A stretch of DNA of 64,000 bases from Candidatus Aminicenantes bacterium (GTDB lineage: Bacteria > Acidobacteriota > Aminicenantia > Aminicenantales > UBA4085), in NCBI GenBank assembly GCA_963715635.1, contig OY970261.1:2161011-2225010 (forward strand). The letters run 5' to 3'. This document shows, in pieces, positions 2,040 through 21,544 of the stretch. Positions within the stretch are counted from its first letter, which is position 1, and each line of letters opens with the position of its first letter. The notes beneath the pieces were generated by a model. The model saw only the letters and a list, made by a program, of their open reading frames with translations. It was not told where the DNA came from and did no database searches. A program made the position numbers and the translations under genes.

Positions 2040-2238
2040 AAGGAAGCATGAAAAAAGGAAGCGCGCCTGGCCGGACTCGAACCAGCGACACAGGGATTAG
2101 GAATCCCCTCTAATGGGATTCTGTGTTCTCGGGAAAAATCGGGTTTTCCCCATATTTTTCGTATTTTTCCTTTAAGCACCATTAAGCCAAATTAAGCGAG
2201 TTTAAGCAAATTCTGTGACACCGGCGTGACACGGGGAG
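2040..2238. repeat. Composite repeat unit R1: tRNA-Arg 3' half (2063-2109, minus orientation, tRNA positions ~27-76) plus conserved iteron arm (hairpin GGGAAAAAtcgggTTTTCCCC, TTAAGC x4, GTGACAC x2). attR-like junction next to the host kinase gene
   Basis: Near-identical to the 3' part of the complete tRNA at 29314-29391. The same ~190-bp unit recurs at 3525, 6812 and 14190. Confidence 0.65.
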
Positions 2239-2739
2239 ATGTCCGGGCGATTTCTGTTGCTTTAAGGCTCCCTTCGTCTTTTAAGCCCACCGCTCGCTAT
2301 TTTTTGTTCAGCTTGACATCCGACCAGGCTGCGATCTAGCACCCTAACGATGGGAAGAGGGGAAACTTGCGCATGAACGCTTACTCAGCCAGCAAAGCAG
2401 AAAAACGATTTCTTATCTTTCAGAACGAACGTAACATCTTGTCAATCAATAAAACTGCAACGATCCTGTTGAGAAATTCTGAAGAGCCTCTGGCCGGCAT
2501 TGTCCTTTTCAAGGTCCTCCGTTGGATGCGATTCTCGCTCTCTGAACAGATAACGAGAATGAGGAAGAGGTACGTCCCAGAAGCTTGTTGGGCGTTGCCG
2601 GACAAAGAAGGGCGGCCCTGGTCCGGCGGAGGATTGAGCCGTCCCCTCCTTGTCTTTTCCGGCAGGCCGCCGACGCGATGCGCCGCTAAGGGCGACGCGA
2701 CGCCCGTCCCAGCTGGCCTGCCGGATCTTCAGCAATGAG

Positions 2740-3120
2740 TTACCTTCTGGGATTCGAGCCGCCCACGACCGCGTGTGTGTGGGCTTCCTTTGAGCTCAGA
2801 ACAAGATACCCGTCCCTGTCCGGAAACCAGACCTCCGACAGCAGCGACTTATCTCCGACCTTATCGAACACAAGCTCGCAATCCCTGTCCTTATCGTGCC
2901 GTCCAAGCTGGGTTAGAACCACCATGATCGCCGACCCGCTTGCGCTCCGAAGCGCGATGGAGTTGGCATCCGGCATCTCGATCGTGTACTTACCGGGCGC
3001 AAAAGCCTTGCCGCCGGCCACGAACGGGAAGCCGATTTCAATGGTACCTGTCTGAGCATGCGCAAGGGCGCCGCTCACGACAAAAAGAGCCAAGATCATG
3101 ACCACCACTCGATGCTTCAT
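2740..3120 (-). CDS. Small secreted hypothetical protein (signal peptide MKHRVVVMILALFVVSGALAHA)
   Basis: ORF with a GGAGGAG RBS 6 nt upstream of the ATG at 3120. N-terminal hydrophobic signal followed by AHA. Confidence 0.55.
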   Translation of the reverse strand: MKHRVVVMILALFVVSGALAHAQTGTIEIGFPFVAGGKAFAPGKYTIEMPDANSIALRSASGSAIMVVLTQLGRHDKDRDCELVFDKVGDKSLLSEVWFPDRDGYLVLSSKEAHTHAVVGGSNPRR

Positions 3121-3524
3121 TCTTTCTCCTCCTATAATTAAATTTTTTAACACCAAAGAAACTAGTAATCCAAGAATCGTGCCAATTTCAGGCCAGGGAT
3201 ACGTCTGGCCGGCGGATAGATTCCCCTTGAGACAGTCAGGCAGACGAGACTGCTAACGGGAATCCGTTCTTTGATCCGGAAAATAGTCCTGATTGGCAGG
3301 ACTTTTCCCATAGGATTGGATTTTCTTCTTGCGAAAAAAGTTCGGAGCCGGCCGCGCCGCGAGCAGCCTAGACTCCGAGGCTATCTTACGATGATCTCGT
3401 CGAAATTCATCATCGCTGCGGCCTTCGGGGCCGAAACGTCCGGGTGCCACTTGGGCAGGGCTCCGATGTTCTTGGATATCACGTTTGCTTACTCAGGCTT
3501 AAAACAAAAATCAGAAAAATCAGG

Positions 3525-3712
3525 GGAAAAGGGAAGCGCGCCTGGCCGGACTCGAACCAGCGACACAGGGATTAGGAATCCCCTCTGATGGGAATGTGAT
3601 CTCTCGGGAAAAATCGGGTTTTCCCCATATTTTTTTCATTTTTCTTTTAAGCACCATTAAGCCAAGATAAGCGAGTTTAAGCAAATTCTGTGACACCGGC
3701 GTTACACAGGGC
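3525..3712. repeat. Composite repeat unit R2: tRNA-Arg 3' half (3547-3593) plus iteron arm
   Basis: Sequence identity to R1 and R3 across the tRNA fragment, hairpin and TTAAGC/GTTACAC repeats. Confidence 0.65.
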
Positions 3713-3739
3713 TAGGTCTATACAGGGACCTTCTGGACT

Positions 3740-4095
3740 TCAAAAACGATCCCAGCGGAAATCGGCCCGGACGCTTTCTCCCTCAAACAATTTCCTTCCA
3801 GCCAGGCACTCATAAAGGATACATCCAAAAGCCCAGATGTCCGTTCTTTTATCGGCGGCCTTCCCCTTGGCCTGCTCTGGGCGCATGTAGGCTTCAGTCC
3901 CAAAAAGCATGCCGGGCTGCGTCATATCCGCGGTAATAGTCGGGGACTTAATAATATCGACCTCCGAAATCTGATCGAGGGAAGCTCTCGCCAATCCGAA
4001 ATCCAGAATCTTGACCTTCGCCTCTGGAGTAATTTTTATGTTCGAGGGCTTCAGGTCGCGCTGGATTATGCTTTTCTCATGGGCGCCTTTTTCCC
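3740..4095 (-). pseudogene. Ser/Thr kinase catalytic-domain fragment (N-lobe missing) directly downstream of the full kinase gene
   Basis: Translation gives HEKSIIQRDLKPSNIKI...ILDFGLAR...GTEAYMRPEQ...DIWAFGCILYE. No Gly-loop/N-lobe and no plausible start. Confidence 0.55.
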
Positions 4096-4102
4096 ATCAT
4101 CT

Positions 4103-6625
4103 TCATTCCTCGAAGTGCTCCCATTCAGACTTGAGTTTTTCCATGAGCTTCCTAAACCGGCCCTCCCCGCGGATGTTTCCCAGGTAAGGATCATAGTCAT
4201 TGAGATAAGGATAGTTAAAAAAACCACGGCTGACCGCATTTTCCAGCCAATCCAGGGCTTTCTCCCTATCACCAAGAAGAGCATAAAAATCTGCCATAAA
4301 GCTTGAATACTGCGGGTCGCGCTTGACAGTATAAAGCAATTCAGGGCTTAATCCCCGCGAAAAGTTTTTACGATCGCCTTTGGCTGCATATTTTAAAAGA
4401 AAGTAAAGCTGCCACATGAGATTCTGCTTCGGATCTTCAATGTTCTTTTCGATGATAGCCTCCGCCTCCTTAAGTCCTTTTTTATAAATAAGGAGCCAGG
4501 CATACATGAACAGACCTGGTGGGTCCAGAGGGGGAGCTTTGGAGGTGCGTTCAAAGGCAAGGTCCAGCTGACCTCCATACTGATAGAGTAATGTTTTCGC
4601 GGGCACCGTCTGGGGATTCAGCGGATCAACATCAGACATCCTCTCGGCTATTCTTTCCACAGCGGCCATCTTTCCGATGAAGGCGTATGTAATACAGAGC
4701 CACCACATTATGTCCCCATCATTGGGATTTGCCGCCAGCGCCTTCTTCAGATGATATACACCCTTCTGCTGGTTCCCGAAGAAGGCCGAATTGACCAGCC
4801 CCAAAACTAAATGAGCCTCAGAGGATTCAGGGTCCATCTCCAGGGCTTTATTGGCGAAAATTTCTGCTTTTTTTCCATTTTCTTCGCCCATGATTCCCAG
4901 GTTCGCGCACGAATAATACGCATAACCTATGCCGGCGTCGAGCATGGCATTTTCGCCGACGATCTCGAGGCCTTTTCCGAGATACTGAAGTGCCCGGTCA
5001 CATCCTTCTTTTGTCCAAAGCCCGATTTCTCTTTTGGCCTTGAGATAGAACTCGTAGGCCTGAACATTGTCGATTCGGCGCTCGGATATTTTTTTCTTCT
5101 CTTCCCCGGTCAGCTTCAACCTCAAGGCAGTGATGATGGCGGAGGTTATCTCTTCCTCAATGGCGAAGATATCCTGAAACTTTCGTTCGTATCTTTCTCC
5201 CCAAAGCTGGCTGTTATCGCTCGCCTTGACCAGGGCAGGGCTTATGGAAATTGTCTCTCTAAACCGGACCATTCTGGCGGTTAAAACGGTTTTCACTCCA
5301 AGCTCCCGGCCCACTTTTTTTGGATCGATCTTTTCTCCTTTGTAGGCGAAGGAAGAAGCCCGGGAAATGACCTTTTTAAATACGGATAACTGGGAAAGCT
5401 TGTTGATGAGAGTCTCGGTGATGCCATCGCAGAGGTATTCGGCATCAGGATCTGCGTTTACATTCTCGAAGGGAAGGACCGCGATTGAATCCAGGACCTC
5501 TTCCTCTCCCTTAAACATCAGGAGTTTTGAAATGACAACTAAAGCCAAAAAAACTCCGATTCCTCCAAAAAGCGCTACCTTTTTCCATTTGATTTTGGCC
5601 GTAATCCCGGCCAGCCCGGCTGGAATAAGCGGCTTCTTCTTGGAGAGAAGAGGTTCTGTAACCGTCGTGCGTGTCTCGATTTTTTCAAGCTCCCGACGCA
5701 GTTCTTCAGCATCCTGATATCTTTTTTCTCTGTTTTTTTCCAGGCATTTTAGAATCAGGAGGCTGAGGTTTTCGGGAAGCTGTGAAACCAGCTCTTTAGG
5801 GTCTCGAGGAGCCGCGAGCTTATGCTTCATGGCTATGCTTAGAGGAGTATTCCCTTCGAAGGGAACCTTTCCAGTTACCATTTCATACAAGATTATGCCC
5901 AGGGAATAGATATCAGAGCGCTGGTCTGCCTCTTCACCCTCGGCCTGCTCAGGAGACATGTATTCAGGTGTGCCAATGACTGTTCCTTCGCCGGTGATGC
6001 TTTTCGAATGAATAGACCGGGCAATGCCAAAATCCATAACCTTGGCATTGCCCTCCTTATCCACCATGATGTTGCTCGGCTTTAAATCGCGATGAACGAC
6101 TCCCGTCTTATGCGCCTCCGCCAGGCCCTCACATATTTGCTTGGCTATGGAAATCGATTTGCTGATGGGGAGTTGGCCAAACCTCCTTATCGAGCTCTTG
6201 AGATCCTCGCCCGGGACGTACTCCATCGTGATGAAATGAATGCCGTTCTCCTCCAAGAGATCATACATCCGACCTACATGCGGATGGCTGATCTTGCGGG
6301 CCAGCTTGATCTCGTTGTGAAACCGCTCAAGCATGCTTTTGTTTGTAGCAATCTCTGACATAATCAGCTTGAGGGCCACTTCCTCGTTCAGCTTTTTATC
6401 AACAGCACGATAGACCCGGCCCATACCGCCATGGCCCAATTCCTCAATGATTTGGTATCGGGCGGCAAAAGTGGATCCCGTGGTTAATTCTTCTCTGGGA
6501 GTCTCAAGGGTCTTGGTTTGAAAGCTTTCGACATCCCGAGAAGAAGGGAGCAGAGTTGCACATGCTTTGCAATATTTGGAGTCGGAAGGATTATCGGTCT
6601 GACATTTCGGGCATTTGACGGCCAT
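4103..6625 (-). CDS. Ser/Thr protein kinase with N-terminal zinc ribbon, TM segment and C-terminal TPR-like region (840 aa)
   Basis: CPKCQ...CKAC zinc ribbon. ELGHGGMGRVYRA, HRDLKPSNIMV, DFGIAR, GTPEYMSPEQ kinase motifs. Hydrophobic segment, then repeats. Confidence 0.9.
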   Translation of the reverse strand: MAVKCPKCQTDNPSDSKYCKACATLLPSSRDVESFQTKTLETPREELTTGSTFAARYQIIEELGHGGMGRVYRAVDKKLNEEVALKLIMSEIATNKSMLERFHNEIKLARKISHPHVGRMYDLLEENGIHFITMEYVPGEDLKSSIRRFGQLPISKSISIAKQICEGLAEAHKTGVVHRDLKPSNIMVDKEGNAKVMDFGIARSIHSKSITGEGTVIGTPEYMSPEQAEGEEADQRSDIYSLGIILYEMVTGKVPFEGNTPLSIAMKHKLAAPRDPKELVSQLPENLSLLILKCLEKNREKRYQDAEELRRELEKIETRTTVTEPLLSKKKPLIPAGLAGITAKIKWKKVALFGGIGVFLALVVISKLLMFKGEEEVLDSIAVLPFENVNADPDAEYLCDGITETLINKLSQLSVFKKVISRASSFAYKGEKIDPKKVGRELGVKTVLTARMVRFRETISISPALVKASDNSQLWGERYERKFQDIFAIEEEITSAIITALRLKLTGEEKKKISERRIDNVQAYEFYLKAKREIGLWTKEGCDRALQYLGKGLEIVGENAMLDAGIGYAYYSCANLGIMGEENGKKAEIFANKALEMDPESSEAHLVLGLVNSAFFGNQQKGVYHLKKALAANPNDGDIMWWLCITYAFIGKMAAVERIAERMSDVDPLNPQTVPAKTLLYQYGGQLDLAFERTSKAPPLDPPGLFMYAWLLIYKKGLKEAEAIIEKNIEDPKQNLMWQLYFLLKYAAKGDRKNFSRGLSPELLYTVKRDPQYSSFMADFYALLGDREKALDWLENAVSRGFFNYPYLNDYDPYLGNIRGEGRFRKLMEKLKSEWEHFEE

Positions 6626-6811
6626 TGCTGCCCCTTTCCATTTGGGATGGCTAAAGATTAGCAGGGAAAGGCAGCAGAGTCAACTAGGCCGAGTTCATGA
6701 CCTCATGCGTCCCAAATTCGAAATTAGACCTCTCCCTCCTTGTCACCGTCCAGTCATGGGATTTGCTTAAAACCGCCTAATTCTGACTAAGGGAGCTAAA
6801 ATGGAAAGTAG

Positions 6812-7010
6812 CGATTTCTCGAGGAAAGGAAAGCGCGCCTGGCCGGACTCGAACCAGCGACACAGGGATTAGGAATCCCTTCTGAGGGGGAATGTGATCT
6901 CTCGGGAAAAATCGAGTTTTCCCCACATTTTTTTCGTTTTTCTTTTAATCACCATTAGTCCGAAGTAGGCGAGTTTTAGCAAAATCTGTTACACCGGCGT
7001 TACACGGAGG
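6812..7010. repeat. Composite repeat unit R3: tRNA-Arg 3' half (6834-6879) plus iteron arm
   Basis: Same architecture and sequence as R1/R2. Confidence 0.65.
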
Positions 7011-7168
7011 GAGAGGTCTGCCCTGCCACTGGGGCCTAGGCAAGTGGATTCACGGCACGGTATCCTGCCCGGTTTCGGGCACGAATGGAAATCCCCTGAT
7101 ATGTCCCATCATTCGACCTTGACACTTTTCATGGGCAGGCGTTAGTATCTCACTCAGGATGGGAGAGC

Positions 7169-8323
7169 ATGAATAGGCATCACGTCTTCTTGCCGGCGGT
7201 TTCCTGTCTCTGTGGCCTCCTTTGCATCGCCAGTTTGGCGACAGACGATTCTGAATCAGGCTATACATATTGGAGCCGGTTCAAGCCGGGGACCTTTGTC
7301 GCCTTCCGATGCAGCACGACGAGCGGCAGTAAAACCCAGAGCATGCTAAAAACGTTCACTCTCAAGCAAGCCAGCTCCGAATCCGTCGTGCTCGAATACA
7401 AAGAATCGCCACTCGACGCGTCAGGGCAGGCTGTGCAAGCGCGGCCTCCTCTGTTCCTCGCGACCAGCCTTGAGTTCCGTGAGTCCGATGAGATTTATAA
7501 TGACCCAGACCTCTTTAAGTCCCAGCTCAACATAAGCGTGTTCAGCATTCTGAAAAGCAGCGATGCAACAGAGGTCGATGCGGGCCTTGATGATTTCTAC
7601 GTGAAAGGGATTAAGCTCCGGGCCGCCAGGACAAAACTCCGATTCGGAGCCGCGGACACATCGTCGACTGTCACGGTATGGTTGAGCGATGAAATCCCCG
7701 GGAAAGTCGTTAAGCTGTTGCAGGAAATCGAAGCCGGCGGAGGAGTTTACCGTGAAGAGGTTATAGTTGCGGATTTTTCGGCCATTAAAGCGACCCCGGA
7801 CGATATCGAGAAACTCCGGAAGTCGCGAAAGCCGGTCAGTACTGAGGTACCAGGGTCGGTCTACGTAACAGGTCGTTTTCGCTTTTTTGACGATTTTGGA
7901 AACGCAATCCACGATTTCGAACCCGTCAAGAAGTTCATGGAGACACTTGTTCCAACCAACCCGAACACGGACTGGTCCGAAGTCTATAAGAAAGCGTCGC
8001 CTTTTTTGGAGAGGATGCAGGCGTTAAAAAAGCATCTGGATGAAGATAGGCAGAAAGCCGAATTGGAGTTGGGGGCGGTCGAGATGGAAAAGCTGGGACC
8101 GTTCCTGAAGCAGGCTGCCCTTTTTGCCGACTCTATTTCAAGCGTTTTCATAGAGTCCATGGGTTACCTGTCGACACTGGCAAGCGGCCCGCCTAACTAT
8201 CAAGTAGTCCTTTCCGTAGTCGAGGACATGAGGAGCCTTGCGGCGGAATTTGCGACGAATCAGAAGAACTTGCAGCAAGAATTCAAAAAATTGGGCGAGA
8301 CCAAGGTCAGATATCTGAGATAA
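7169..8323 (+). CDS. Hypothetical secreted protein (384 aa) with N-terminal signal peptide
   Basis: Long ORF. N-terminus MNRHHVFLPAVSCLCGLLCIASLA is signal-like. No recognisable catalytic motif. Confidence 0.55.
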   Translation: MNRHHVFLPAVSCLCGLLCIASLATDDSESGYTYWSRFKPGTFVAFRCSTTSGSKTQSMLKTFTLKQASSESVVLEYKESPLDASGQAVQARPPLFLATSLEFRESDEIYNDPDLFKSQLNISVFSILKSSDATEVDAGLDDFYVKGIKLRAARTKLRFGAADTSSTVTVWLSDEIPGKVVKLLQEIEAGGGVYREEVIVADFSAIKATPDDIEKLRKSRKPVSTEVPGSVYVTGRFRFFDDFGNAIHDFEPVKKFMETLVPTNPNTDWSEVYKKASPFLERMQALKKHLDEDRQKAELELGAVEMEKLGPFLKQAALFADSISSVFIESMGYLSTLASGPPNYQVVLSVVEDMRSLAAEFATNQKNLQQEFKKLGETKVRYLR

Positions 8324-8646
8324 AAAGTCCGGCAGGACTAAATGTCTCCGGCGGCTACTCAAAGCAGGCTATTTCCAAGCTCATTAAACATCTCGAAGAG
8401 ACGGGCTGGCTGTCTTCGATTAGGCGCGGCCTGGGACGGCCGAGGAGCAGGCGGAATATTTTTAAGGATGTTTGGTTTTGATGGGGCACAAAGGTCTATC
8501 GTTTTTCGAGAGCTTTTCGGGTCGTCTGGAACGATGAGGCAGCCGACGAGCCTGGTTCAGGGGAATTTCCTTGGCTTGACTTCTATCCGCGATGGGGAAT
8601 ATCATTTTTTCGCGAGGGGAGCCGCGATTCTTAAACTCATTGGGAC

Positions 8647-9789
8647 ATGATCACAAACAACACGGAAAAGGAAATTAATATCATTATGCAGGAGGATGGG
8701 ATGAGAAATCATAAAAATGGACTCCTATTTGTATTTGCGACGATTTGCCTAATCGATTTCGGACCTATCGGATCGGCCTGGGCTCTGCGGCCCCAGGATA
8801 ACCCGTCCCGAATTTTTCCTTTGCCCGAGGTTGAACGACCCCATCAAATTTGCGTGGAAAACGGAAACGTCTATATCGCGGATGAAAACGACATACTCGT
8901 CTATGATTTCCGGGAAGGCCGTTTCTTGAAAAGGATCGGAAAAAAGGGCCAGGGGCCCGGCGAGTTTAGCTCGAGGCCCGGCCGCATGACCGTGCTTTCC
9001 GGTCGATTGTCGGTTGAAAACTCCGAGAGACTAGAGTTTTTTTCTCTTGACGGAGACTATATCAACGGAATCGTTGAACCCGGATTCCAGGGTTTTTTGC
9101 CTTTTCTTCACGTCGGAAAAAATTACGTCGGATTCCCTATGGAACGGCTGAACGACGGCTCCCTGTCCCCTCCGGCCGGCTGGATTTATGATCAGACCCT
9201 CAAGCCCCAAAAAAGATTCTATACTGATCTTCCCATGGGCCCTCCGCCTCCTCCCCCGCCCGGGTCGATTTCCTCCGGCAAAACAGATGTCCTCATGGTC
9301 CGGGATTTCGCGGACGCCATCGTGGATAGCGGAAAAATCTATGTTGCCGATTCCAGAAAAGGACTATTCATTTCCGTCTTCAATGAAAACGGGGATCTGC
9401 TTTACGAAATCCGCCATTCACTGGGGAAGGTCAAGGTTCCCAAGGGCTATCTCGATGCCTTGATCAAAGAACGCCGGGCGTCGAAATACTGGAATTCCAT
9501 TTATGCCCATCAGAATCCCATCGTGCCGGACTATTTCCCCGATTTCGTCGGCTTCAAGATCGACGCGGGCCGGATCTATGCCGTCCGGCCCGTGGAGAAG
9601 GACGGTTTATACGAAGTCGTCGTCCTGGACCTCAAGGGCCGGATCCTCGAAAGAAGCTTCCGGTTTCCGCTTAAGCCGGATTTTGAAATGCCCGCGAGGA
9701 AAAGCTTCCTCTACGACGTCGAAGAGAACAGATTCGTCTGGTTCGCCTACAACGACGCCAAGGAGATGTGCGAGCTTCATATCCACTGA
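8647..9789 (+). CDS. Secreted NHL-repeat/beta-propeller-like protein with poly-Pro linker (380 aa)
   Basis: Signal-like N-terminus. Repeated 'VYIAD..D.ILVYDF.EGRFLKRIGKKGQGPGEF' NHL-like motifs. PPPPPPPG stretch. Confidence 0.5.
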   Translation: MITNNTEKEINIIMQEDGMRNHKNGLLFVFATICLIDFGPIGSAWALRPQDNPSRIFPLPEVERPHQICVENGNVYIADENDILVYDFREGRFLKRIGKKGQGPGEFSSRPGRMTVLSGRLSVENSERLEFFSLDGDYINGIVEPGFQGFLPFLHVGKNYVGFPMERLNDGSLSPPAGWIYDQTLKPQKRFYTDLPMGPPPPPPPGSISSGKTDVLMVRDFADAIVDSGKIYVADSRKGLFISVFNENGDLLYEIRHSLGKVKVPKGYLDALIKERRASKYWNSIYAHQNPIVPDYFPDFVGFKIDAGRIYAVRPVEKDGLYEVVVLDLKGRILERSFRFPLKPDFEMPARKSFLYDVEENRFVWFAYNDAKEMCELHIH

Positions 9790-9822
9790 AAAAATCAAAC
9801 GTCGCGCGGCCTGATCAAAAAA

Positions 9823-10215
9823 TTGCGCCCGTGGCAGGAGGAAGCGGCCTTCCTGTCCTTCGCTCAGTATCTCTCGGGACAGGTCGGGAAGTATTGGATA
9901 ATGAAAAAGGGGAAAAAAGTTTATGTAATTCAGCGTAGATTGAGTCTGCTGGCCGCTAAGCTCGGGCTCGAAGAGCGGTTTAAGAAAGACAGACAGAGCG
10001 CCCTGAGGACAATCAAGCGCACTCTCCAAATTTACAAAGAGCTCGGCTTCCTCTATGGCTACACGTGGGCGAAGACGGGAAAGGGTGAGAGAAAAGTTAT
10101 CCTCTTCCTGAATCCTGAGAAGCTGCCCCATTTGAAGAGGCAAGTCATAAGGCTGCGTCCGGCTGTTCAATCAACCGCGGCCGGGGAAGCCTGCACTGCG
10201 GCCCCCTCATCCTAA
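9823..10215 (+). CDS. Hypothetical basic protein (130 aa)
   Basis: ORF only. No recognisable motifs. Confidence 0.3.
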   Translation: MRPWQEEAAFLSFAQYLSGQVGKYWIMKKGKKVYVIQRRLSLLAAKLGLEERFKKDRQSALRTIKRTLQIYKELGFLYGYTWAKTGKGERKVILFLNPEKLPHLKRQVIRLRPAVQSTAAGEACTAAPSS

Positions 10216-10550
10216 TTGACCTATAAGCCCGGATTGAAGACCAGCTGCTGTCATCAACCTGGCCTCTGCATCCTCCATTCCTTCTATTTTGCCTTCCTTG
10301 CCTAAAACATCGCGCTAGGATTGTCTAGGACGGGCTTTCTCAAAACGGTCAAGGGCTAGCCTTGCCATTTCCGGCTCCTCCTTGATAAAATTGACAGTGA
10401 AAGGAGGAAGTCAATGGCGGCTTCACACAGCCGCCGAAATTCCAGCAATTTTTTAGGGAGCACCTATCAGAGAAAGCCGGGAGGCCCTCCTCCCGCCGGC
10501 CGCCTTGGACGTGGACCTCGCCGTCCACCAAGAAGGATGAAAGAAAAGAC

Positions 10551-11387
10551 ATGAGCAAAGCCAAAGAAGGCCAGCCGCTGCACTGGGCCGCTCGCAAAGG
10601 CCATAAAGACATAGCCGAGATGCAGCTCGGCCAAGGTGTGGACGTAAACGTCCGGGACGAAGAGGGGCAGACACCGTTGCACTGGGCCGCAACAAGTAAA
10701 GGCCGTAAGGAGATGGTCGAGCTGCTGATCGCCAAAGGAGCGGACGTAAACGCCAAGGATGACGCGGGCCGGACGCCACTACACGCCGCTGCAAGTAAAG
10801 GCCATAAGGACATAGCCGAGTTGCTAATCGCCAATGGCGCGGACGTAAACGCCCGCCGGCGGTTGGACGAAGGAAGCCGCGCGGGCCAGACGCCCCTTCA
10901 CGAGGCCGCTTATGAGGGCAAACTGGACTTGGTCGAGCTACTAATCGCCAAGGGTGCGGATGTAAACGCCAAAGTTAAAGATAGTGACTGGACGCCGCTG
11001 CACGCCGCCGCTTCGGATGGCTTTAAGGACGTGGCGGAGCTGCTGATCGCCAAGGGTGCGGACGTGAATGCTGGGGATGAAACGCCGCTACACTGGGCCG
11101 CAAGCTATGGTCATAAAAACGTGGCCGAGCTGTTGATCGCCAAGGGTGCGGACCTAAACGCCAAGGCCTCCGATGGCTGGACGCCGCTGCACGCCGTCGT
11201 CCACCCCCGCGTGGAATCGCCGTCCAACGCCGCTTGGAGTGGCCACAAGGACGTGGCTGAGCTGTTAATCACCAAGGGCGCGGATGTGAACGCCAAGGAT
11301 GGCTGGGGCAATACGCCGCTACACTGGGCCAAGGAGAAAGGCTACAAGGACGTGGCCGAGCTGCTCAAGAAGCATGGGGCGAAGTGA
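10551..11387 (+). CDS. Ankyrin-repeat protein (about 8 ANK repeats)
   Basis: Repeated 'G.TPLH.AA..GH.D.AELLIAKGADVNAK' units. Strong ~99-bp DNA periodicity. Confidence 0.85.
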   Translation: MSKAKEGQPLHWAARKGHKDIAEMQLGQGVDVNVRDEEGQTPLHWAATSKGRKEMVELLIAKGADVNAKDDAGRTPLHAAASKGHKDIAELLIANGADVNARRRLDEGSRAGQTPLHEAAYEGKLDLVELLIAKGADVNAKVKDSDWTPLHAAASDGFKDVAELLIAKGADVNAGDETPLHWAASYGHKNVAELLIAKGADLNAKASDGWTPLHAVVHPRVESPSNAAWSGHKDVAELLITKGADVNAKDGWGNTPLHWAKEKGYKDVAELLKKHGAK

Positions 11388-11662
11388 TGAGGCGGAGAAT
11401 GGGTCCGTTTGGCAAAAACGCCCAAAACGTTCCCGTTTATACTATTTCCCCGGTCTCTACCTGTCCTGTTTCTCAGGTTTTGCCTTCTCTGCTCAAAAAC
11501 ATCGCAATAGGACGCGCTAGGGCAGAGTTTCTCAAAACGGTCAATGGTCCAGGCTTGCTATTTTCGGCCTCTCAACCGTCCGCCCGCCGTATCACGGGAA
11601 AGGCACGGGAGGGATGGCTGTCTAGTTTGTTCTAAAATGGTCTGACCAGGTAAGGACTTCAA

Positions 11663-12232
11663 TCAAGGACTGTCCAAAATCTTATTGTCATTTATTGGAG
11701 TTAATGACCATGGCTTAGCTCTCACGATTCTTTCTTTTCCAACTACAAACAAAGTAAGAGTAAATATCGCAATATAAGCTAGCGACGAATTGGCGTATTT
11801 AATTCTCGGGCTCAGGGTTTTTCTATCAACAACTTTTAGCATGCTTATTCGTTTTAAATTGTTGCAGTCTTTCGCAATATCCAGTTCATCAAAACTGTTA
11901 ATCATAATATTATGGGCAAAATGATTTCTTTCTCTATTAATGAGCTTTAAATCCTCCATATCCTCTTTAGCTATTAATCCAAGCAGATAACATAGTTTCA
12001 TGCTTCTTTCAAAGTTCAAATTATATTCAATATTTTTAACAAAGAATTCCTCGTCCGCCAATTTTTTCCTTAAGAGCGAATTTAACAAGTTTTCAAGATA
12101 AGCATGAAGCATAATCGCAGCCCCCTTGTCAGTTTCTTTATTAAGAGCTGCATAGTATTTCTGTATTTCATCATTCTTCAAATGTCCTTTATCATCTAAA
12201 AAGACTTCAACGTTTTTTTCCGCTTTTTTCAC
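11663..12232 (-). CDS. HEPN-domain protein (DUF4145/Abi-like), 189 aa
   Basis: All-alpha prediction with the RNxxxH signature (NRERNHFAHN) typical of HEPN RNases. AT-rich gene in an island. Confidence 0.5.
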   Translation of the reverse strand: MKKAEKNVEVFLDDKGHLKNDEIQKYYAALNKETDKGAAIMLHAYLENLLNSLLRKKLADEEFFVKNIEYNLNFERSMKLCYLLGLIAKEDMEDLKLINRERNHFAHNIMINSFDELDIAKDCNNLKRISMLKVVDRKTLSPRIKYANSSLAYIAIFTLTLFVVGKERIVRAKPWSLTPINDNKILDSP

Positions 12233-12355
12233 AGATTTTCCTCCTCTTCCATCGTCTTTCTCTATGAGGCGATTATCCGCGCAAGTGTCATATAATTAAA
12301 CGGGAAGCCATGCCTTAAAGCCTCTGGTTTCTTCCAGGCCTCATTCTTTATCTAT

Positions 12356-12715
12356 TCAATGTTCATGAACAATTTTCCATTCTCCGTTATCTTGCTGTTC
12401 TTTAACAGTATGGTGGTATGTTTTTTTCTCGTGATCAACCGTCAAAATTACTCGTGTTGGCTTTTTCGTTTTCCCGCTTATTTTATTTTCTCCTTTAGAC
12501 AAAAGTCTTTTTTGAGCATCATGATGTTTTGTTTCAAGGAAATCGAGAAATTTTAAATATTCCACGAATTCCTCTTTTATATGCTTGTGCCCGCAAGAAA
12601 GAAAATACGTCACTGCCTGACCGTCAAGAGCTGATTCATAAACGGTTTTCAATATTTCTTTTTCCCCTTTGCACGTGGGACACTCCATTTTGAGAATTTC
12701 CATTCTACCGCCCAT
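12356..12715 (-). CDS. Small zinc-ribbon protein (CPTC...CGH), 119 aa
   Basis: ORF with Cys-x2-Cys and Cys-Gly-His motifs. Same strand and operon position as its neighbours. Confidence 0.4.
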   Translation of the reverse strand: MGGRMEILKMECPTCKGEKEILKTVYESALDGQAVTYFLSCGHKHIKEEFVEYLKFLDFLETKHHDAQKRLLSKGENKISGKTKKPTRVILTVDHEKKTYHHTVKEQQDNGEWKIVHEH

Positions 12716-12844
12716 TTATATTCTGACCTTCCTTAACAGCAGGTCTTCAACGTCGGTCAATCTTATCTCAAGCCCTTGACTCTTTGCTCTCGCGGCCTCT
12801 TCATAAGCGCTTTTGGTAACGCCTCTATTATTCAAGCGTATATC

Positions 12845-13192
12845 TCAATCAAACTTAATGCCCGTGACAATGAAAAGCATCGCGACAAGAAAAATAAACG
12901 CGAGCCCCGCTATAGACGCAAAAACTCCGGCCATGAAGGAATTCATCCAGATTTCTGAACCGAATTTTTTCTTTTCGATGAAGATTTTCCTAAAAAGAAA
13001 ATACACAACAAGGATCGGAGGCAGACAGACGAATGTCAGGAGAACATCCGTGCTGCCAGGCAAAATCTTTATTTTTTGCAGACCGCTGCCTATAGAACCT
13101 AATAGAACGAACCAGCCCCAGCCATATCCCGTTGTTTTTTCAAGAGGGTCCTTCGGTTTAGGTTTTAGATAATCGCCTATTCCCATTATCAA
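12845..13192 (-). CDS. Small integral membrane protein (about 3 TM helices)
   Basis: Hydrophobic helices GWGWFVLLGSIGSGL, LLTFVCLPPILVVYFLF, AGVFASIAGLAFIFLVAMLFIV. An alternative + strand ORF overlaps it. Confidence 0.4.
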   Translation of the reverse strand: MIMGIGDYLKPKPKDPLEKTTGYGWGWFVLLGSIGSGLQKIKILPGSTDVLLTFVCLPPILVVYFLFRKIFIEKKKFGSEIWMNSFMAGVFASIAGLAFIFLVAMLFIVTGIKFD

Positions 13193-13252
13193 CCTCCTCC
13201 TCTTGTGCTATTTAGTCAAATTTTTATGTTTCCAGAGTTTTAAATAACGTTT

Positions 13253-14011
13253 TTAACTCAGATAATTTATTTTTCTTTCTTCATGCACAAGGTAATTGCC
13301 CAGTCTGGGATAACCTCTCTTGAGATCGGATTTATGAAGAGTATTTGATATATGAGCCGCAAAATCGATAACTTCGTCGAAATTCGGTGTGGGAGAGAAA
13401 ACCGTCCATCTATTTTCCTTTTCGACATAATCCCAGCATCCTCTCCCTATTACGCAAATAGCACGTAAAGCTGGCGGTTCATTTTCTTCGATATTTTCTT
13501 TATACCTTTCAATTTCATTTTTGCCGCTCGGGGCTAAATCCGAAGTAAATGCGAAAAGAGCCGGGACTATTTTATTTATGTGATGTTGAATCGGCCTATT
13601 ATTTGTGTCAAAGATTCCCGAGAGGTATATTATGTTACTTAAGATATTTTTTGCTTTATTATGAGCATCTCTGATTTCGGCTGCGGTTATCTTACTTTTA
13701 ACCTCTATCGCATAGAATACTGACTCGGCGGGAAAAAGGTAATCCTCCTCTCCGAACATTATTGAAGGCAACTTTTTCTTGCTATAAATTATTAAATCAA
13801 CCTCACTGGACTGAAACCCGGTGTGATCTATAATTTTCCCTGATATTTTTATTTTGAAATCTTCAGGAAGAATAGGCTCAATTACTCGCTGCGCCGCAAT
13901 TTCTCGAATCTTTCCCATTAAAGGATGTTCAATTCTCGCCGCTTCGGAAAATTCATCCATAGCAGTTCGAACAGAAGTAATTATTCTATTTCTAAATATT
14001 TCGTGTGGCAT
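13253..14011 (-). CDS. Predicted PD-(D/E)xK-family nuclease (252 aa)
   Basis: Motifs GKIIDH...SEVDLIIY...AESVFYAIEVKSK fit the D...(D/E)xK restriction-endonuclease-like core. Heads a 4-gene minus-strand array. Confidence 0.45.
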   Translation of the reverse strand: MPHEIFRNRIITSVRTAMDEFSEAARIEHPLMGKIREIAAQRVIEPILPEDFKIKISGKIIDHTGFQSSEVDLIIYSKKKLPSIMFGEEDYLFPAESVFYAIEVKSKITAAEIRDAHNKAKNILSNIIYLSGIFDTNNRPIQHHINKIVPALFAFTSDLAPSGKNEIERYKENIEENEPPALRAICVIGRGCWDYVEKENRWTVFSPTPNFDEVIDFAAHISNTLHKSDLKRGYPRLGNYLVHEERKINYLS

Positions 14012-14189
14012 TTAATCCCCTCCCTTACGTGATTAACATTTAAATCTTAACTGACGTTAGGACCAAAATCAATCGAACAAAGAAAATCGAAGATAGACTT
14101 CTCCAAAATCTTGTCACCAAATTGTCACAAGAAAAAGTGCCTAAAACCGCCTAATCTTGACTAAGAAGTTAAAAGGGGAAAGAAAGAAT

Positions 14190-14394
14190 TTCTCGGGGAA
14201 AAGGGAAGAGCGCCTGGGGGGACTTGAACCCCCGACAAAGGGATTAGGAATCCATTCTAGCCTGATCCGGGTCCCTCGAGAAAAAACGGTTTTCCCCTTA
14301 TAATCAAGGTTTTCTGATTAACTTTTTTTAGTCTAGATTAAGCGGATTTAAGCAAATTCTGTTACACCATGGTGACACGGGGAGGAGTCTATTT
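14190..14394. repeat. Composite repeat unit R4 (diverged): 3' half of a variant tRNA-Arg (T-arm GGGGGTTCAAGTCCCCC; 14210-14253) plus iteron arm
   Basis: The anticodon-region core ggattaggaatcc is conserved but the T-arm differs from the resident tRNA. The iteron arm is homologous to R1-R3. Confidence 0.6.
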
Positions 14395-14680
14395 TCAGAT
14401 TTGACCCCGCTTTTCATTAGTGCTATTCTATTGCCAGGCAGCTAAAAAGGGAAAAAGGCTATGAAGTTGCTCAACTATCGCGTCAAGGATTTTCTAAATC
14501 AAATTAAGGGAGTCTGAATATGGGATGGAGAGGCGTTGCTAGGGCTATAATCTCTTTAATACTCCAGCAGCCGTCGCCACAGAAAAGGAAATGCTTTAGG
14601 GAATATATTAAGCCCAAGAGATGGGAGCAAAAGAACGTCGTTATAAATGTGATTAATACTTGCATTAAGGAGCATGGCTG

Positions 14681-15265
14681 ATGGATATATGGCAATTAGA
14701 CAAGCTAAGTCTCTTTCTTATATTTTTCTTGCCCGGATTCATTTCGATAAAGATATATGATTTGCTGATTCCTTCCGAAAAAAGAGATTTCTCAAAATCA
14801 TTATTTGAAGTTATAGGATATAGCGCCCTAAATTTTGCGGCGCTTTCTTGGCTGATAATTCTAATTCACTCAGGCTACTTTTATAGAGAACATAAGTTCT
14901 GGTACCTAATAATATTGCTCTTAATTATATTCGTCATTCCTATCTTGTGGCCGATGCTTATTCTAAAAATATTATATTGGTCTCCAATTGCAAACCGAAT
15001 AATCCATCCAATTCTAAAGCCATGGGACTTTGTTTTTGGGAAGAAAAATGTTTGCTGGATAATCGTACACCTTCAAGACGGGAGAAAGATTGGCGGAAAG
15101 TACGACAGAGGATCGTTCGCCTCATCATTTCCTGCCGAAGAACAAATATACTTAGAAGAAGTATGGGAATTGGATGAAAAAGGAGCGTTTAAAAGACCAA
15201 TCGAGAGATCGCGCGGTATTATAGTATTAGGAAAGGATATTTCCTCGATTGAATTTTTTATTTAA
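14681..15265 (+). CDS. Integral membrane protein, hypothetical (194 aa)
   Basis: Several hydrophobic helices (LFLIFFLPGFISI, ALNFAALSWLIILI, YLIILLLIIFVIPILWPMLIL). Confidence 0.45.
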   Translation: MDIWQLDKLSLFLIFFLPGFISIKIYDLLIPSEKRDFSKSLFEVIGYSALNFAALSWLIILIHSGYFYREHKFWYLIILLLIIFVIPILWPMLILKILYWSPIANRIIHPILKPWDFVFGKKNVCWIIVHLQDGRKIGGKYDRGSFASSFPAEEQIYLEEVWELDEKGAFKRPIERSRGIIVLGKDISSIEFFI

Positions 15266-15484
15266 AAAGGAGAATATTATGCCGGACAAAAAGAGCAGGG
15301 TTAACAAAAAACAGGTCGTACAAATACAAGAAGGTTTTCAGCCAGTTAAAAAAGGACACCAGCCAATTAAGGGCGATTTAAATACCGCAAATCCTCCGCA
15401 GGGAGGATCTGGGGTCCCTTTAAAGCCATCAACTAGCAGCGATCGCGATAAGAAGGTTGATAAAAAGTAGGGGATTATAAATAC

Positions 15485-15672
15485 CTGGCTATTTTGATTC
15501 TTCGCAAAGAGGGGAAAATCCGAAGCCCGGACTGTCACGCCGGAGGTCGCGAGTTCGAGCCTCGTCGGCCCCGCCAGTTTTCCCCATATTTTCCCGGTTT
15601 TCCTTTTAGCGCCTTTAAGCCGATTTAAGCGAATTTTAGCAATTTTTGGAACACGGGCGGAACACGGGGAGG
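15485..15672. repeat. Repeat unit R5: 3' fragment of a different tRNA/tmRNA-like gene on + strand (T-arm GCGAG-TTCGAGC-CTCGT, acceptor CGGCCCC-G-CCA ending 15576) followed by a homologous iteron arm (TTAAGC x3, GGAACACGG x2)
   Basis: T-loop and encoded CCA are visible but no complementary 5' acceptor strand upstream. The downstream arm aligns with the R1-R4 arms. Confidence 0.5.
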
Positions 15673-15808
15673 AGTTTGGCACCAGAAGTATTTTAACCCG
15701 ATGGATCAGATGTCCTTTAGGCCACGCGAGCTGTCAATATAGAAATACCCGGTTTGCTTATTGAGGGTTGGGCCTTCATTCACATCAGCGGGGCATGAGA
15801 AATTTTTA

Positions 15809-16093
15809 TTAAAGCTTTATAATGCCCCGATCAATAAGAATCTTTATTAGCTTCTCATGATTAATAGGGCAATCTATAAGTTTCTCGAATTCTCCAATAG
15901 TGAGTGAAAGCTGTTTAGCCATATTTGATAATAGGGGATCTCCATATTCATTAAGATTGTGGCTGATTTTTGTGAAAACACTTGTTTTTTTATTTTTGTA
16001 ATAAAGAAAATAAAAAGTATGATCTCTTTGTTCTTCTTTAAATCCTTTCTTTTTCAATTGATAATCAATATCTCTTGTTTTGCGCGGATTCAT
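15809..16093 (-). CDS. Small hypothetical protein (94 aa), possibly HicA-like fold; last gene of an AT-rich 3-gene operon
   Basis: ORF overlaps the upstream gene by 4 nt. 'LKKKGF...KISH' faintly resembles HicA 'GW...GSH'. Confidence 0.4.
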   Translation of the reverse strand: MNPRKTRDIDYQLKKKGFKEEQRDHTFYFLYYKNKKTSVFTKISHNLNEYGDPLLSNMAKQLSLTIGEFEKLIDCPINHEKLIKILIDRGIIKL

Positions 16094-17040: not shown

Positions 17041-17147
17041 TTTTTCTTTCTAAAATAAAATAAATATTCGCTTTAGGTATATCATAATCTATATGCCTTT
17101 GTGCGACTTATAAATCATAGCTCTTTTTCTTTATCCAAATCAAATGT

Positions 17148-18449: not shown

Positions 18450-18509
18450 TAAATTTTGTCCCTCGGCTTTGCCTCTTTGATCTCAAGCTGCTCAGGCTTT
18501 TTTCCCTTC

Positions 18510-19190
18510 TTAGTGGATATAAATTCGACCCGTTTTCTGGACCCTTGTCCCTATATACTGCCGGTCCAGCCAGTCGATGGTATATTGGACATGATCTATC
18601 TGAGACCAGCTGTAGAGGTTAAAGAAGATGGCTTCAAAGACCGCACTTTGTCCGGGTTTGATATCGCCCAAGTCGGCAGGGAATCCGTGGGCCGTGTCGA
18701 GGATGGTATTGCCCGCATTGAGGGCCTGGAAAGAGATCATCACGTTCCAACCCGTCAAGTTTCCGTCATTGCGGACAATCCCGTCAATTTTTGGGCAGTG
18801 ATAGCTAGTCATCCCGTTGGAGGAAGAAGCCAAGACTATCACGGCTCGGCCTTCGACCGTGAACGTGCATTGCCTGGAAGCCGTCCCGTCCGCATTGGTC
18901 GCGGTAAGGGTCCAGGTCGTGGTCTGCGTCGGTTTAGCCTGCTGCGAGCTGGTAGCTGCGACGGAGCCGATGCCTTGGTCGATCGTCACCGAGGTCACGC
19001 CCGAAACATTCCACGAGAGAGTCGCCGTCACGTTCTCTTTATATTTGCACTGAGATGGAGATATCGAGAAATCATTTATGACCGGCGGGTGTTTTTCCGC
19101 CGGAGTGGTAGGAGTGCCTTTGCAAGCGAAACTCACCAGCACTGCCGCTAAATAAAAAACCCCAAAAACTTTTCTCAAACTTTTTTTCAT
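18510..19190 (-). CDS. Secreted/lipoprotein-like protein (226 aa), Thr/Ser-rich with beta-rich domain
   Basis: N-terminus MKKSLRKVFGVFYLAAVLVSFAC is a signal peptide with Cys. Confidence 0.5.
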   Translation of the reverse strand: MKKSLRKVFGVFYLAAVLVSFACKGTPTTPAEKHPPVINDFSISPSQCKYKENVTATLSWNVSGVTSVTIDQGIGSVAATSSQQAKPTQTTTWTLTATNADGTASRQCTFTVEGRAVIVLASSSNGMTSYHCPKIDGIVRNDGNLTGWNVMISFQALNAGNTILDTAHGFPADLGDIKPGQSAVFEAIFFNLYSWSQIDHVQYTIDWLDRQYIGTRVQKTGRIYIH

Positions 19191-21531: not shown

Positions 21532-21544
21532 AATGCCTCCGTTG

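Follow-up and report, generated by a model that had tools for sequence, protein, structure and literature searches.

A 64 kb stretch of Aminicenantes DNA (hereafter the window) carries a short non-coding repeat, here called an arm, beside one tRNA fragment after another, and the locus raises the question of what such an arm does. We favour the reading, with a probability of about 0.7 and judging from sequence, that the arms are non-core flanks (P or P') of attP-type sites belonging to tRNA-targeting integrative modules that have accreted in tandem. Directly observed are the repeat with its internal layout, its association with tRNA pieces and with the tail of an integrase gene, its fixed spacing and the exchange of neighbours at tRNA cores.

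A repeated arm beside tRNA fragments

The arm family has five direct copies in the window, each about 100-130 bp long and all on the plus strand (nhmmer E 1e-29 to 1e-40). Copy 1 lies at 2116-2243 (E 1.5e-40, with a motif match), copy 2 at 3591-3719 (E 6.7e-40), copy 3 at 6889-7014 (E 8.7e-39), copy 4 at 14264-14390 (E 1.7e-33), at the left end of a 1.5 kb module, and copy 5 at 15573- or 15578-15677 (E 4.4e-29). The initial annotation had reported five arms next to tRNA fragments at these places, and both profile search and alignment bear it out; a 32-nt degenerate arm pattern matches only these five copies in the window, where shuffles lead one to expect 0. It overlooked three inverted arms, which the profile search places on the opposite side of tRNA-Arg fragments. 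These are a partial arm at 3482-3530 (minus strand, E 5.5e-4), directly 3' of tRNA-Arg fragment 2 in the orientation of the tRNA, an arm at 6731-6815 (minus strand, E 1.6e-10) forming the right end of a kinase module, and one at 14096-14201 (minus strand, E 2.1e-5) at the right end of a 7.4 kb module, the motif of which is 116 bp from the anticodon loop.

About 44 bp away from the anticodon loop the arm opens with TTTTCCCC; next come a T-rich stretch, the TTARKC repeat four times in phase and, 11 bp apart, two GTKACAC sequences. Its distal motif reads CTGTKAC-N6-GTKAC. Copy 1 contains the hairpin CTCGGGAAAAATCGGGTTTTCCCC at 2128-2151, the repeats at 2172-2207 and the distal motif CTGTGACACCGGCGTGAC at 2213-2230. 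Four TTAAGC hexamers had been described for the arm as such; they occur in copy 1 only, in exact 10-bp phase (2172, 2182, 2192, 2202), and TTARKC is the family-wide form. The pair once written as GTGACAC is indeed a pair, with the letters GTKACAC in general and GGAACAC twice in copy 5. The hairpin, formerly ascribed to all five arms, is found in copies 1-4 (3603-3626 in copy 2, 6901-6924 in copy 3 and 14275-14297 in copy 4) and is missing from copy 5, as it is from all arms that follow a tRNA 3' end. No conserved RNA fold of the arm was found, and it appears on reading to lack coding potential, with TAA and TAG triplets recurring throughout the repeat region.

The tRNA pieces and the build of the island

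The island occupies 2110-40003, inside tRNA-Arg(CCT). Pieces of this gene in the window comprise one intact copy, four 3' halves and one 5' half, forming direct repeats that bound the insert, and their identity blocks overlap on the anticodon stem-loop. The intact gene (29315-29392, minus strand, called by ARAGORN and Rfam) is rebuilt from element-borne halves that arrived from both sides. Arm copies 1-4 each come after a 49-nt, minus-strand copy of its 3' half: the outermost displaced one at 2061-2109, running from anticodon stem-loop to acceptor end (family D7, 98% identical to 29317-29365), fragment 2 at 3536-3584 (D7, 98%), fragment 3 at 6833-6881 (D7, 100%) and the divergent fragment 4 at 14208-14256 (84% identity). 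Fragment 4 shows compensatory T-stem changes, a third T-stem version is present at locus L054 of another genome, and the fragment was carried in by an element. The displaced native 5' half lies at 40004-40046 on the minus strand (family D11, 98% identical to 29350-29392).

Copy 5 lies directly 3' of the end of a different tRNA piece, at 15527-15576 on the plus strand, which runs from anticodon stem to CCA. This had been described as part of a "tRNA/tmRNA-like" gene. It is a tRNA and not a tmRNA, because over 50 nt it is 94-96% identical to genes of other genomes that ARAGORN identifies as tRNA-Asp(GTC), and it represents a second att core nested inside the tRNA-Arg island.

The modules of the window measure about 1.5, 3.3, 7.4 and 1.3 kb. 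Most are without an integrase, and no recombinase gene was found between 2110 and 27800. Those of 3.3 and 7.4 kb have a tRNA fragment and an arm at both ends. Cargo genes are of mixed orientation, and some resemble defence genes. On the favoured reading, small modules would insert by tyrosine-integrase recombination at the tRNA anticodon stem-loop, each insertion rebuilding the tRNA and displacing both the previous 3' half and the older module's arm deeper into the island. The outcome would be an array of the form fragment-arm-cargo-fragment-arm. Most modules here would have lost their integrase or never had one, and would need such an enzyme in trans or from a neighbour.

Two integrases and their motifs

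Two related tyrosine integrases converge on the rebuilt tRNA-Arg(CCT), their open reading frames lying 4 bp and 32 bp from it (Pfam Phage_integrase domain, E 3e-30 and 5e-31). Integrase 1 (27865-29310, plus strand, 481 aa) has the Pfam domains HTH_17, Int_N and Phage_integrase and ends 4 bp from the tRNA 3' end; its N-terminal HTH_17 and Int_N domains are the putative arm-binding part. Integrase 2 (29425-30582, minus strand, 385 aa) is a paralogue lacking HTH_17 (Pfam; family HMM E 3e-70).

The distal motif of the arm lies within the gene for integrase 1, at 29221-29238. Its pattern has five matches in the window, four in arms and one in this gene, with 0 expected. The motif occupies the 3' coding tail not only of integrase 1 but also of 9 further distinct homologues sharing 40-80% amino-acid identity, 24-30 codons before the stop, and in 430 kb of loci it gives 45 matches, compared with 0-8 (mostly 2-4) in shuffles. 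Conservation of the tail motif for protein reasons could be the cause, given that an NLLHxCDT patch occurs in 46 of 84 integrase homologues; the Leu codons of the motif are CTG TTA in six of seven printed gene tails and TTG TTA in the seventh. Two further observations count against the favoured reading. The motif of integrase 1 itself, CTGTTACGTGGTGGTGAC, fits the arms less well than do the motifs of remoter homologues, such as that at L037, and within the integrase gene the motif runs in the direction opposite to that of the same-side arm of integrase-less modules. The TTAAGC hexamers, earlier proposed as arm-type integrase sites, are loosely conserved, and the GTKACAC pair is the best-conserved candidate that is shared with the integrase gene. 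We infer that integrases of the HTH_17 family use this pair as their arm-type site. Accessory or bending proteins may bind the T-rich stretch and the phased repeats and so bring the arm back onto the core.

Integrase 2 has a comparable partner. Motif B, TTGACGTCTTTTTGACGTCC, lies inside its gene at 29492-29511 and recurs, reading on the plus strand, at 39902-39922 in the leftward-pointing arm of a second element (39902-39990, minus in direction). This arm contains TTAGGC and TTAGGT repeats and the hairpin CTCGGGGAAAAACGATTTTCC at 39969-39990. An inverted relative of the hairpin had been noticed beside the 5' half; it is present and belongs to this inverted arm of a second, different element. 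What integrase 2 has in common with its own element's far end is the motif TTGACG-N2-3-TTTTTGACGTCC, which matches only twice in the 64 kb, with 0 expected. The pair of integrase 2 and motif B is an independent replicate of the integrase/arm arrangement with a different motif. For both CTGTKAC-N6-GTKAC and the TTGACG system, a repeated site distinct from the core is found on both sides of the core.

Spacing between arm and core

Measured to the middle of the anticodon loop, the distance of the motif is 111-116 bp in 13 junctions of three geometries, 123 bp in one and 133-135 bp in four, in steps of 11 bp. The distance from motif to core is thus fixed and phased to the helical repeat. Wherever an arm has a tRNA piece beside it, its register to the anticodon loop is fixed.

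Four 10-bp-phased repeats and two direct repeats next to an AT-rich stretch would also be expected if the elements had iterons here, for replication or partition, and some of their relatives carry AAA_25 or primase replication genes. The arms, however, sit at module ends in a fixed att-core register, even in modules without a replication gene; the same motif lies in an integrase tail, where an origin would not be expected to place it; and arm flavours differ between the only two comparable integrase/arm pairs. We regard iterons as the most improbable of the explanations weighed here.

Exchange of neighbours at tRNA cores

The 1.5 kb module offers a view of how modules are joined. Positions 14188-15671 match L054 and L056, from other metagenomes, at 97%, and the neighbours differ, an indirect hint that the module may excise as a circle and integrate anew. 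The change in identity falls within the tRNA-Arg and tRNA-Asp pieces, at their anticodon arm, and neither in the arm nor in the hairpin. Alignment A3 shows the arm diverging along with the T arm of the neighbouring module's tRNA. There is no sign of the independent mobility that the initial annotation had entertained for the arm: at the one mappable junction, the arm and the neighbouring module's tRNA 3' portion travel as one.

These switch points bear on a rival proposal of cassette exchange, after the manner of integrons or Xer/pdif modules, in which crossover takes place in the arm itself or in its 7-6-7 hairpin GGGAAAA-N6-TTTTCCC and the tRNA pieces are bystanders. The hairpin has the core layout of a tyrosine recombinase (two 7-bp inverted sites and a 6-bp spacer), the modules of 1.3-7.4 kb are bounded by arms, several with inverted arms at both ends as in pdif modules, and there are arm arrays devoid of tRNA pieces in L003 and L011 and an arm-only unit in L012. 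Yet where the same module meets other neighbours the switch falls in the tRNA anticodon arm; the hairpin is absent from copy 5 and from every arm after a tRNA 3' end, and no IntI or Xer-type gene organisation was seen, all of which makes this proposal decidedly unlikely. An integron cassette array in the strict sense, with IntI, attI and Pc, attC hairpin sites and co-oriented promoterless cassettes, was rejected: the integrases abut a tRNA and are members of an HTH_17 phage-integrase family, no fold of the arm is conserved, cargo orientation is mixed and crossovers map to the tRNA pieces.

The earlier suggestion that the arm behaves as the arm of an integrase attachment site therefore gains support from the shared tail motif, the second integrase/arm pair, the fixed and phased spacing and the neighbour switches within tRNA pieces. 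A further step, which we consider less likely than not, is that the arm is a portable docking arm through which one integrase family shuffles integrase-less cargo of 1-7 kb, some of it resembling defence genes, among several tRNA-derived cores. If this were true, the system would be functionally integron-like while built from lambda-type att arms and tRNA fragments; cores nested in other elements would take part, and the arm flavours would serve as address labels for different integrases.

Arms in other genomes

About 12 Aminicenantes MAGs contain the arm, both in arrays and immediately behind genes or fragments of tRNA-Asp, -Ala and -Lys. Among 185,579 species-level genomes the strict arm pattern picks out 15 loci; each has 1-3 arms, and all belong to a single phylum. 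Its partners are Arg-CCT, Asp, Ala, Lys and an Arg-TCG 5' half, so the arm is not tied to one tRNA, and the idea of one family with several tRNA targets, also put forward in the initial annotation, is supported. Copies do not always border an integrase, a point that the initial annotation had proposed to check: none of the 15 other loci has a tyrosine recombinase within the 2-8 kb examined around each, most window modules have none either, and no arm was found within 10 kb upstream of the sampled integrase homologues. The only complete pairing of an integrase with a family-A arm (GTKACAC type) is the one in the window, and it assumes an element span of 14257-29365 that a tRNA-Asp junction interrupts. 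These points weigh against the favoured reading. In L052 and L050 the integrase, tRNA 3' part and arm are contiguous, and one of the two is a 9.5 kb element between two tRNA-His fragments. Insertion-free states are represented by L016, which lacks 29393-40003 and has the tRNA joined straight to the window flank from 40047 onward, and by L013, which is without a 1.7 kb module present in L010; no such empty site turned up for the 3'-half side of the tRNA-Arg gene.

Another eight arms, in other genomes, stand without an adjoining tRNA piece; they keep a well-conserved distal half, and several of them are truncated. Wide occurrence away from tRNA fragments or integrases had been named beforehand as the sign of a REP- or MITE-type repeat; these eight arms therefore show part of that sign, although to judge by their pattern they are modules that have decayed or lost autonomy, or never had it, and not a REP or MITE repeat. 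Relics would be expected to decay, yet the distal half is kept, so the arm may have another function. A self-spreading repeat of that kind with a liking for tRNA flanks would be short, non-coding and highly conserved across species, as the arm is, and would sometimes stand alone, truncated or in inverted pairs, as arms do. It is nonetheless very improbable here: copies are few and limited to one phylum (1-3 at each of the 15 loci), there are no terminal inverted repeats within the unit and no target-site duplications were seen, the register to the anticodon loop is fixed whenever a loop is present, and in the single traceable case the arm moves with the tRNA 3' portion and cargo.

Arms directly follow intact tRNA-Asp, -Ala and -Lys genes, which could also mark a native element 3' of tRNA genes in Aminicenantes chromosomes, namely a terminator plus a promoter or upstream activator for the next gene or tRNA, copied passively whenever a mobile element takes up a tRNA 3' end along with its trailer. 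The hairpin and T run score as terminator-like, and many arms have a gene in the same direction 60-150 bp downstream. A transcriptional role would also suit the motif at L013, L010 and L037, where it precedes a tRNA gene by 60-95 bp; the arm of L013 and L010 stands between tRNA-Asp and tRNA-Arg(ACG), with its motif about 70 bp upstream of the second tRNA, and the lone motif of L037 is about 95 bp upstream of a tRNA. Window arms 1-4 and L001, however, have no preceding tRNA 3' end and still keep 112-114 bp to the anticodon loop. The motif also lies inside integrase genes, the second integrase has a motif pair of its own, arms are strung together with tRNA fragments and variable cargo into arrays, and some (u2, u5) aim at convergent genes. 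There is no consistent sigma-70-like promoter within the arm, and the downstream sides of the arms have no gene in common, against the possibility raised earlier that the arm is the leader of one conserved gene family. We consider a native element unlikely.

Significance

Aminicenantes are uncultured, and we found no description of their mobile elements in the literature. The locus offers a dissection of integrase and att site in which a candidate arm-type site is legible from the integrase gene's own tail, together with a strict core-to-arm spacing rule and several arm flavours, perhaps indicative of integrase specificity. The locus further presents small modules, some with defence-like genes, that build up at tRNA genes without each having its own integrase. 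The rule of a motif in the tail could be used to pair integrases with att sites in metagenomes and, if the integrase-less modules prove mobile, they would constitute a simple natural platform for cassette exchange.

Comparison with known systems

In the attP sites of lambda, HP1 and L5 a core is accompanied by arms with arm-type Int sites and sites for bending proteins. The Aminicenantes sites resemble lambda-type attP in having arms of about 100-150 bp on either side of a core, tandem direct repeats spaced about 10-11 bp, the same repeat on both sides of the core, extra N-terminal DNA-binding domains on the integrase and a spacing sensitive to helical phase. They differ in that one arm site lies inside the coding tail of the integrase itself, the putative arm-binding part includes an excisionase-like HTH_17 fused to the integrase, and one kind of arm is used with at least five different tRNA cores.

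Prochlorococcus tycheposons, in the portion of their description available (bioRxiv 10.1101/2020.12.28.424599), likewise form tRNA-side islands in which elements are separated only by partial tRNAs, with scattered degenerate remnants, cargo and defence genes, and small replication modules in some elements. Their host phylum is different, the likeness is one of general island anatomy, and a conserved phased arm is not met in that portion. The 3.3 and 7.4 kb modules, which have no integrase or transfer genes and keep att sites at both ends, are in this respect like CIMEs (cis-mobilizable elements), and the accretion of ICEs and IMEs likewise places modules lacking integration genes, with att-like ends, in tandem with an integrase-bearing element on the same target (PMC5704250). 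Unlike CIMEs, the modules here have arms at their two ends that are inverted copies of each other, and no conjugation or relaxase genes were seen.

The closest general framework is that of tRNA and tmRNA islands of tyrosine integrases, in which the target is split and regenerated by element-borne sequence (Islander database, PMC4383910), as exemplified by the Dehalococcoides ssrA islands, tyrosine-integrase islands described in the available part of their account as tandem arrays in the tmRNA gene (PMC3146451). A recombinase adjacent to the tRNA, bounding tRNA copies and an insertion-free site in relatives are all found for the locus analysed here. As far as those two sources go, the split and rebuilt target, the displaced fragment at the far end, the fragment arrays arising by repeated insertion and the integrase beside the regenerated gene are common to both. 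The present locus differs from such islands in that two related integrases occupy one tRNA from opposite sides, the families carrying the 3' half versus the 5' half, most modules are of 1.3-7.4 kb and lack an integrase, and a tRNA-Asp core is nested in the tRNA-Arg island. Tandem insertion in a tRNA gene is thus a known route of island building, of which the family found here is an undescribed and unusually modular representative.

Arm copies and tRNA fragments

The arm, a repeated block of 105-130 bp with phased TTARKC repeats, a distal GTKACAC pair and, in some copies, a proximal hairpin, is most plausibly the non-core arm of attP-type sites that serve the family of integrase 1, one of two related tyrosine integrases that converge on the intact tRNA-Arg(CCT) gene of the window. 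The initial annotation had proposed from sequence that the arms belong to integrase att sites, an idea that holds in outline on the basis of a common motif, a constrained geometry and the position of crossover. The five units it described were borne out: a search with a profile derived from them, together with an alignment, places copies 1-5 at 2116-2243, 3591-3719, 6889-7014, 14264-14390 and 15573-15677 (E 1.5e-40 to 4.4e-29). A 32-nt degenerate pattern representing the distal part of the arm matches the window at these five places only, with no match expected from shuffled sequences.

Units 1-4 each come after a 49-nt stretch copied from the 3' half of tRNA-Arg(CCT), the only tRNA gene in the window (29315-29392, minus strand). 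The fourth copy shows 84% identity and compensatory changes in the T stem, and therefore comes from another lineage. The fragment of unit 5 (15527-15576, plus strand) had been described as tRNA/tmRNA-like; across 50 nt it matches tRNA-Asp(GTC) genes that ARAGORN calls in other genomes, at 94-96% identity, which rules out a tmRNA identity.

Four evenly spaced TTAAGC hexamers, attributed earlier to every unit, are present in unit 1, where all four are perfect and in exact 10-bp phase, and in none of the other units; the repeat consensus across 27 members of the arm family is TTARKC, and the best-conserved part of the arm is TAGGCGAGTTTTAGCAAAATCTGTTACACCGGCGTTACACGGGG. Three inverted copies had escaped notice, at 3530-3482, 6815-6731 and 14201-14096. 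These lie directly across the tRNA-Arg fragments, so each internal tRNA-Arg fragment has arms on both flanks, pointing away. Their position, directly 3' of the tRNA 3' end, is the one commonly found elsewhere. A 7-6-7 hairpin with a terminator-like score occurs only in arms without a preceding tRNA 3' end, and an IHF consensus, as judged by eye, is visible in the T-rich stretch of only some arms and is given no weight.

The arm in other genomes

When one genome per species was scanned, the arm pattern turned up at 15 loci. Most of these are in metagenome-assembled genomes labelled Candidatus Aminicenantes or Aminicenantales, and a few are on short contigs binned elsewhere. Arms directly follow intact genes for tRNA-Lys(CTT), tRNA-Ala(GGC) and, at four to five loci, tRNA-Asp(GTC), as well as 3' fragments of tRNA-Asp and tRNA-Ala and a 5' half of tRNA-Arg(TCG). 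Three loci (L003, L010 and L011) carry arrays of arms, and in a fourth, L012, an Ala and then an Asp fragment, each followed by an arm, stand in succession with no cargo. The expectation that arms always border integrase islands failed in these other loci, each 2-8 kb long, which contain no tyrosine recombinase.

Other flavours of arm share the proximal part and differ in their distal direct repeats, the common proximal sequence being TTTTCCCC(A/T)ATAAATCA. They occur at 4020-4130 of L013 (minus strand), 1550-1680 of L011 and 1006-1090 of L054, with distal repeats of AGTCGAGAC (two copies, after tRNA-Arg(ACG)), TTGAGCACA (two to three copies, after tRNA-Arg(TCT)) and TTTGTGCCA (four copies).

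Genes beside the arms differ from locus to locus, some being accessory or defence genes (HsdM, a NucS-like protein and AbiEii). An all-against-all comparison of arm-adjacent ORFs revealed no common downstream gene, which rules out a leader or promoter of one gene family. A structured RNA was likewise rejected: Rfam finds only tRNA, and RNAalifold, run on 24 arms, predicts no real helix (-3.2 kcal/mol). As to a phage origin, also rejected, the arm pattern has no match in IMG/VR; a motif-only pattern has six matches, all lacking an arm, tRNA or nearby integrase, which are read as chance.

Arm-core geometry and crossover position

Arms lying away from tRNA, named in the initial annotation as a sign of a free-standing repeat, do exist: eight arms in other genomes adjoin no tRNA piece and are often cut down to the distal half, which is still well conserved, while others adjoin tRNA genes or fragments. 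Against such a repeat stands the spacing between the distal motif (CTGTKAC-N6-GTKAC) and the anticodon-loop centre, which is 111-116 bp in 13 junctions, 123 bp in one and 133-135 bp in four, and hence changes in steps of 11 bp, one helical turn. The 111-116 bp spacing is kept whether the intervening DNA is the tRNA 3' portion, about 25 bp and the hairpin (beside a reverse-read 3' half) or a spacer and the hairpin (beside a 5' half). Phased spacing of this kind does not fit a free-standing repeat; it fits protein-mediated looping between arm and core.

Exchange between modules locates the core. The window's DUF6338 module (14188-15671) matches two contigs from other samples, L054 and L056, at 97% identity, with different neighbours on both sides. 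To its left, similarity starts at the anticodon stem-loop of tRNA-Arg; the 3' halves differ, and the T stem occurs in three versions, all base-paired. To its right, the match is perfect (100% identity) as far as the tRNA-Asp anticodon arm and variable loop, drops to about 85% through the T arm, acceptor end and arm, and is lost at the arm's distal end. These switches within the tRNA pieces map strand exchange to the tRNA anticodon region, and by the same comparison the arm travels together with the neighbouring module's tRNA 3' portion. Since the two ends of the DUF6338 module carry different cores, one Arg and one Asp, its att sites are nested. In L050 a complete element of 9.5 kb lies between two tRNA-His fragments, ordered as arm, MerR, Xis, primase, further genes and integrase, and in L051 an integrase-free module of 3.9 kb separates an integrase-bearing element from the tRNA.

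The distal motif within integrase genes

Integrase 1 (27865-29310) is a 481-aa protein with HTH_17, Int_N and Phage_integrase domains, and its stop codon lies 4 bp from the tRNA 3' end. Integrase 2 (29425-30582; 385 aa), whose stop codon lies 32 bp from the tRNA 5' end, is a paralogue lacking the HTH_17 domain. Members of the integrase 1 family always abut a tRNA piece, either tail to tail with Arg-CCT or Arg-TCG, or co-directionally with the 3' part of Val-TAC or His-GTG followed by a TTTCCCC-type arm (L052, L036, L040 and L050).

All ten distinct integrase gene sequences examined contain the distal motif of the arm 24-30 codons before the stop codon (AATCTGTTACACGGCTGTGACACGG in L037, for example). 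The ten proteins are 40-80% identical and their tails otherwise variable, and six of seven gene tails compared use CTG TTA for the two Leu codons, the seventh using TTG TTA. Retention of the motif and of the same Leu codons despite this divergence points to constraint on the motif as DNA. Integrase 2 follows suit with a different, 20-nt motif: its coding tail contains TTGACGTCTTTTTGACGTCC, and the far end of the element to which it belongs contains TTGACGGGATTTTTGACGTCC, the only two matches in the 64 kb. That far end is an arm in inverted orientation, which shares the proximal TTTTCCCC and the hairpin.

The arm could on this account be a remnant of an integrase gene 3' end. Only about 30 bp are common to the two, and position and orientation relative to the tRNA differ; this origin was rejected. 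A difficulty for the att-site reading is that the motif within the integrase gene runs opposite to the arm found on the same tRNA side in integrase-free modules. No arm was found within 10 kb upstream of the sampled integrase homologues, and the 10 kb flanks on other contigs do not extend to the far ends of integrase-1-type elements, so the pairing of integrase and arm draws on the common motif, the geometry and the window itself.

A second, inverted motif is present at 11600-11622 of L037 (and in L038 and L039), on the 5' side of tRNA-Arg(TCG) and 130 bp away from its anticodon loop. It mirrors the integrase-tail copy on the other side of the tRNA, and could be an attB-side arm site or the relic of a 5'-half element. 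The integrase homologues (P0001-P0084) share conserved last residues, '...LFSVN*', and the DNA just past the tRNA 3' end is conserved as CTAATTC..TGAAAA in tRNA orientation, so that another DNA-level site may lie between the arm motif and the end of the tRNA.

A composite island in tRNA-Arg(CCT)

Elements occupy the tRNA-Arg(CCT) gene on either side (29315-30582 and 39902-40046). A copy of its 5' half lies at 40004-40046, and in the related contig L016 an integrase 1 homologue and tRNA are joined straight to the sequence found after 40046. The segment 29393-40003 is therefore an insertion with its own tRNA 5' half, presumably supplying the tRNA promoter too; its further genes code for Xis-like HTH_17, AAA_25 and Clp-like proteins. 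Carrying the 5' half is an uncommon orientation for a tRNA-integrating element. The window thus contains a tRNA-Arg(CCT) island of about 38 kb that has grown on either side of the gene, its left border near 2060 being deduced from the last fragment only.

No recombinase is encoded between 2110 and 27800. The modules between successive fragments measure about 1.5, 3.3, 7.4 and 1.3 kb and encode ankyrin, NHL and DUF6338 proteins, among others. Cargo in the window looks defence-related: within the modules, a Ser/Thr kinase with TPR repeats (4103-6625) matches PD-T4-6 defence models (1e-102) and a DUF6602 protein (13253-14011) matches NucC and PD-DExK nuclease models; in a larger stretch that also has a TPR protein, a methylase is fused to an Mrr-like endonuclease (21642-23258).

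The DUF6338 protein (14681-15265) has homologues of 60-80% identity labelled Scalindua, Brocadiaceae and ANME-2 archaea, suggesting wide movement of this gene between phyla. G+C content is 33-44% at 12000-19000, against 50-58% elsewhere; the low-G+C stretch takes in the right-hand portion of the 7.4 kb module together with a minus-strand operon (16090-19190) of unknown genes that match nothing in Pfam or PADLOC. Long tandem DNA repeats of 102 nt (19881-20894) and about 99-132 nt (10571-11328) encode TPR and ankyrin repeats, respectively, and lie outside the arm system.

Proposed site architecture and relation to known systems

Within the proposed attP-type site, the GTKACAC pair is likely the arm-type site of the integrase, while the phased TTARKC repeats and T-rich stretch would be sites for accessory or bending proteins. 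The arm is a real feature and the kind of system is already known; a family with a modular, multi-tRNA, helically phased arm appears to be undescribed in the literature searched. The array of fragments and arms would have arisen by serial insertion followed by decay. Such a history has been described for accretion and CIMEs (PMC5704250), for tRNA islands generally (PMC4383910) and for tycheposons, in which partial tRNAs alone separate elements (bioRxiv 10.1101/2020.12.28.424599).
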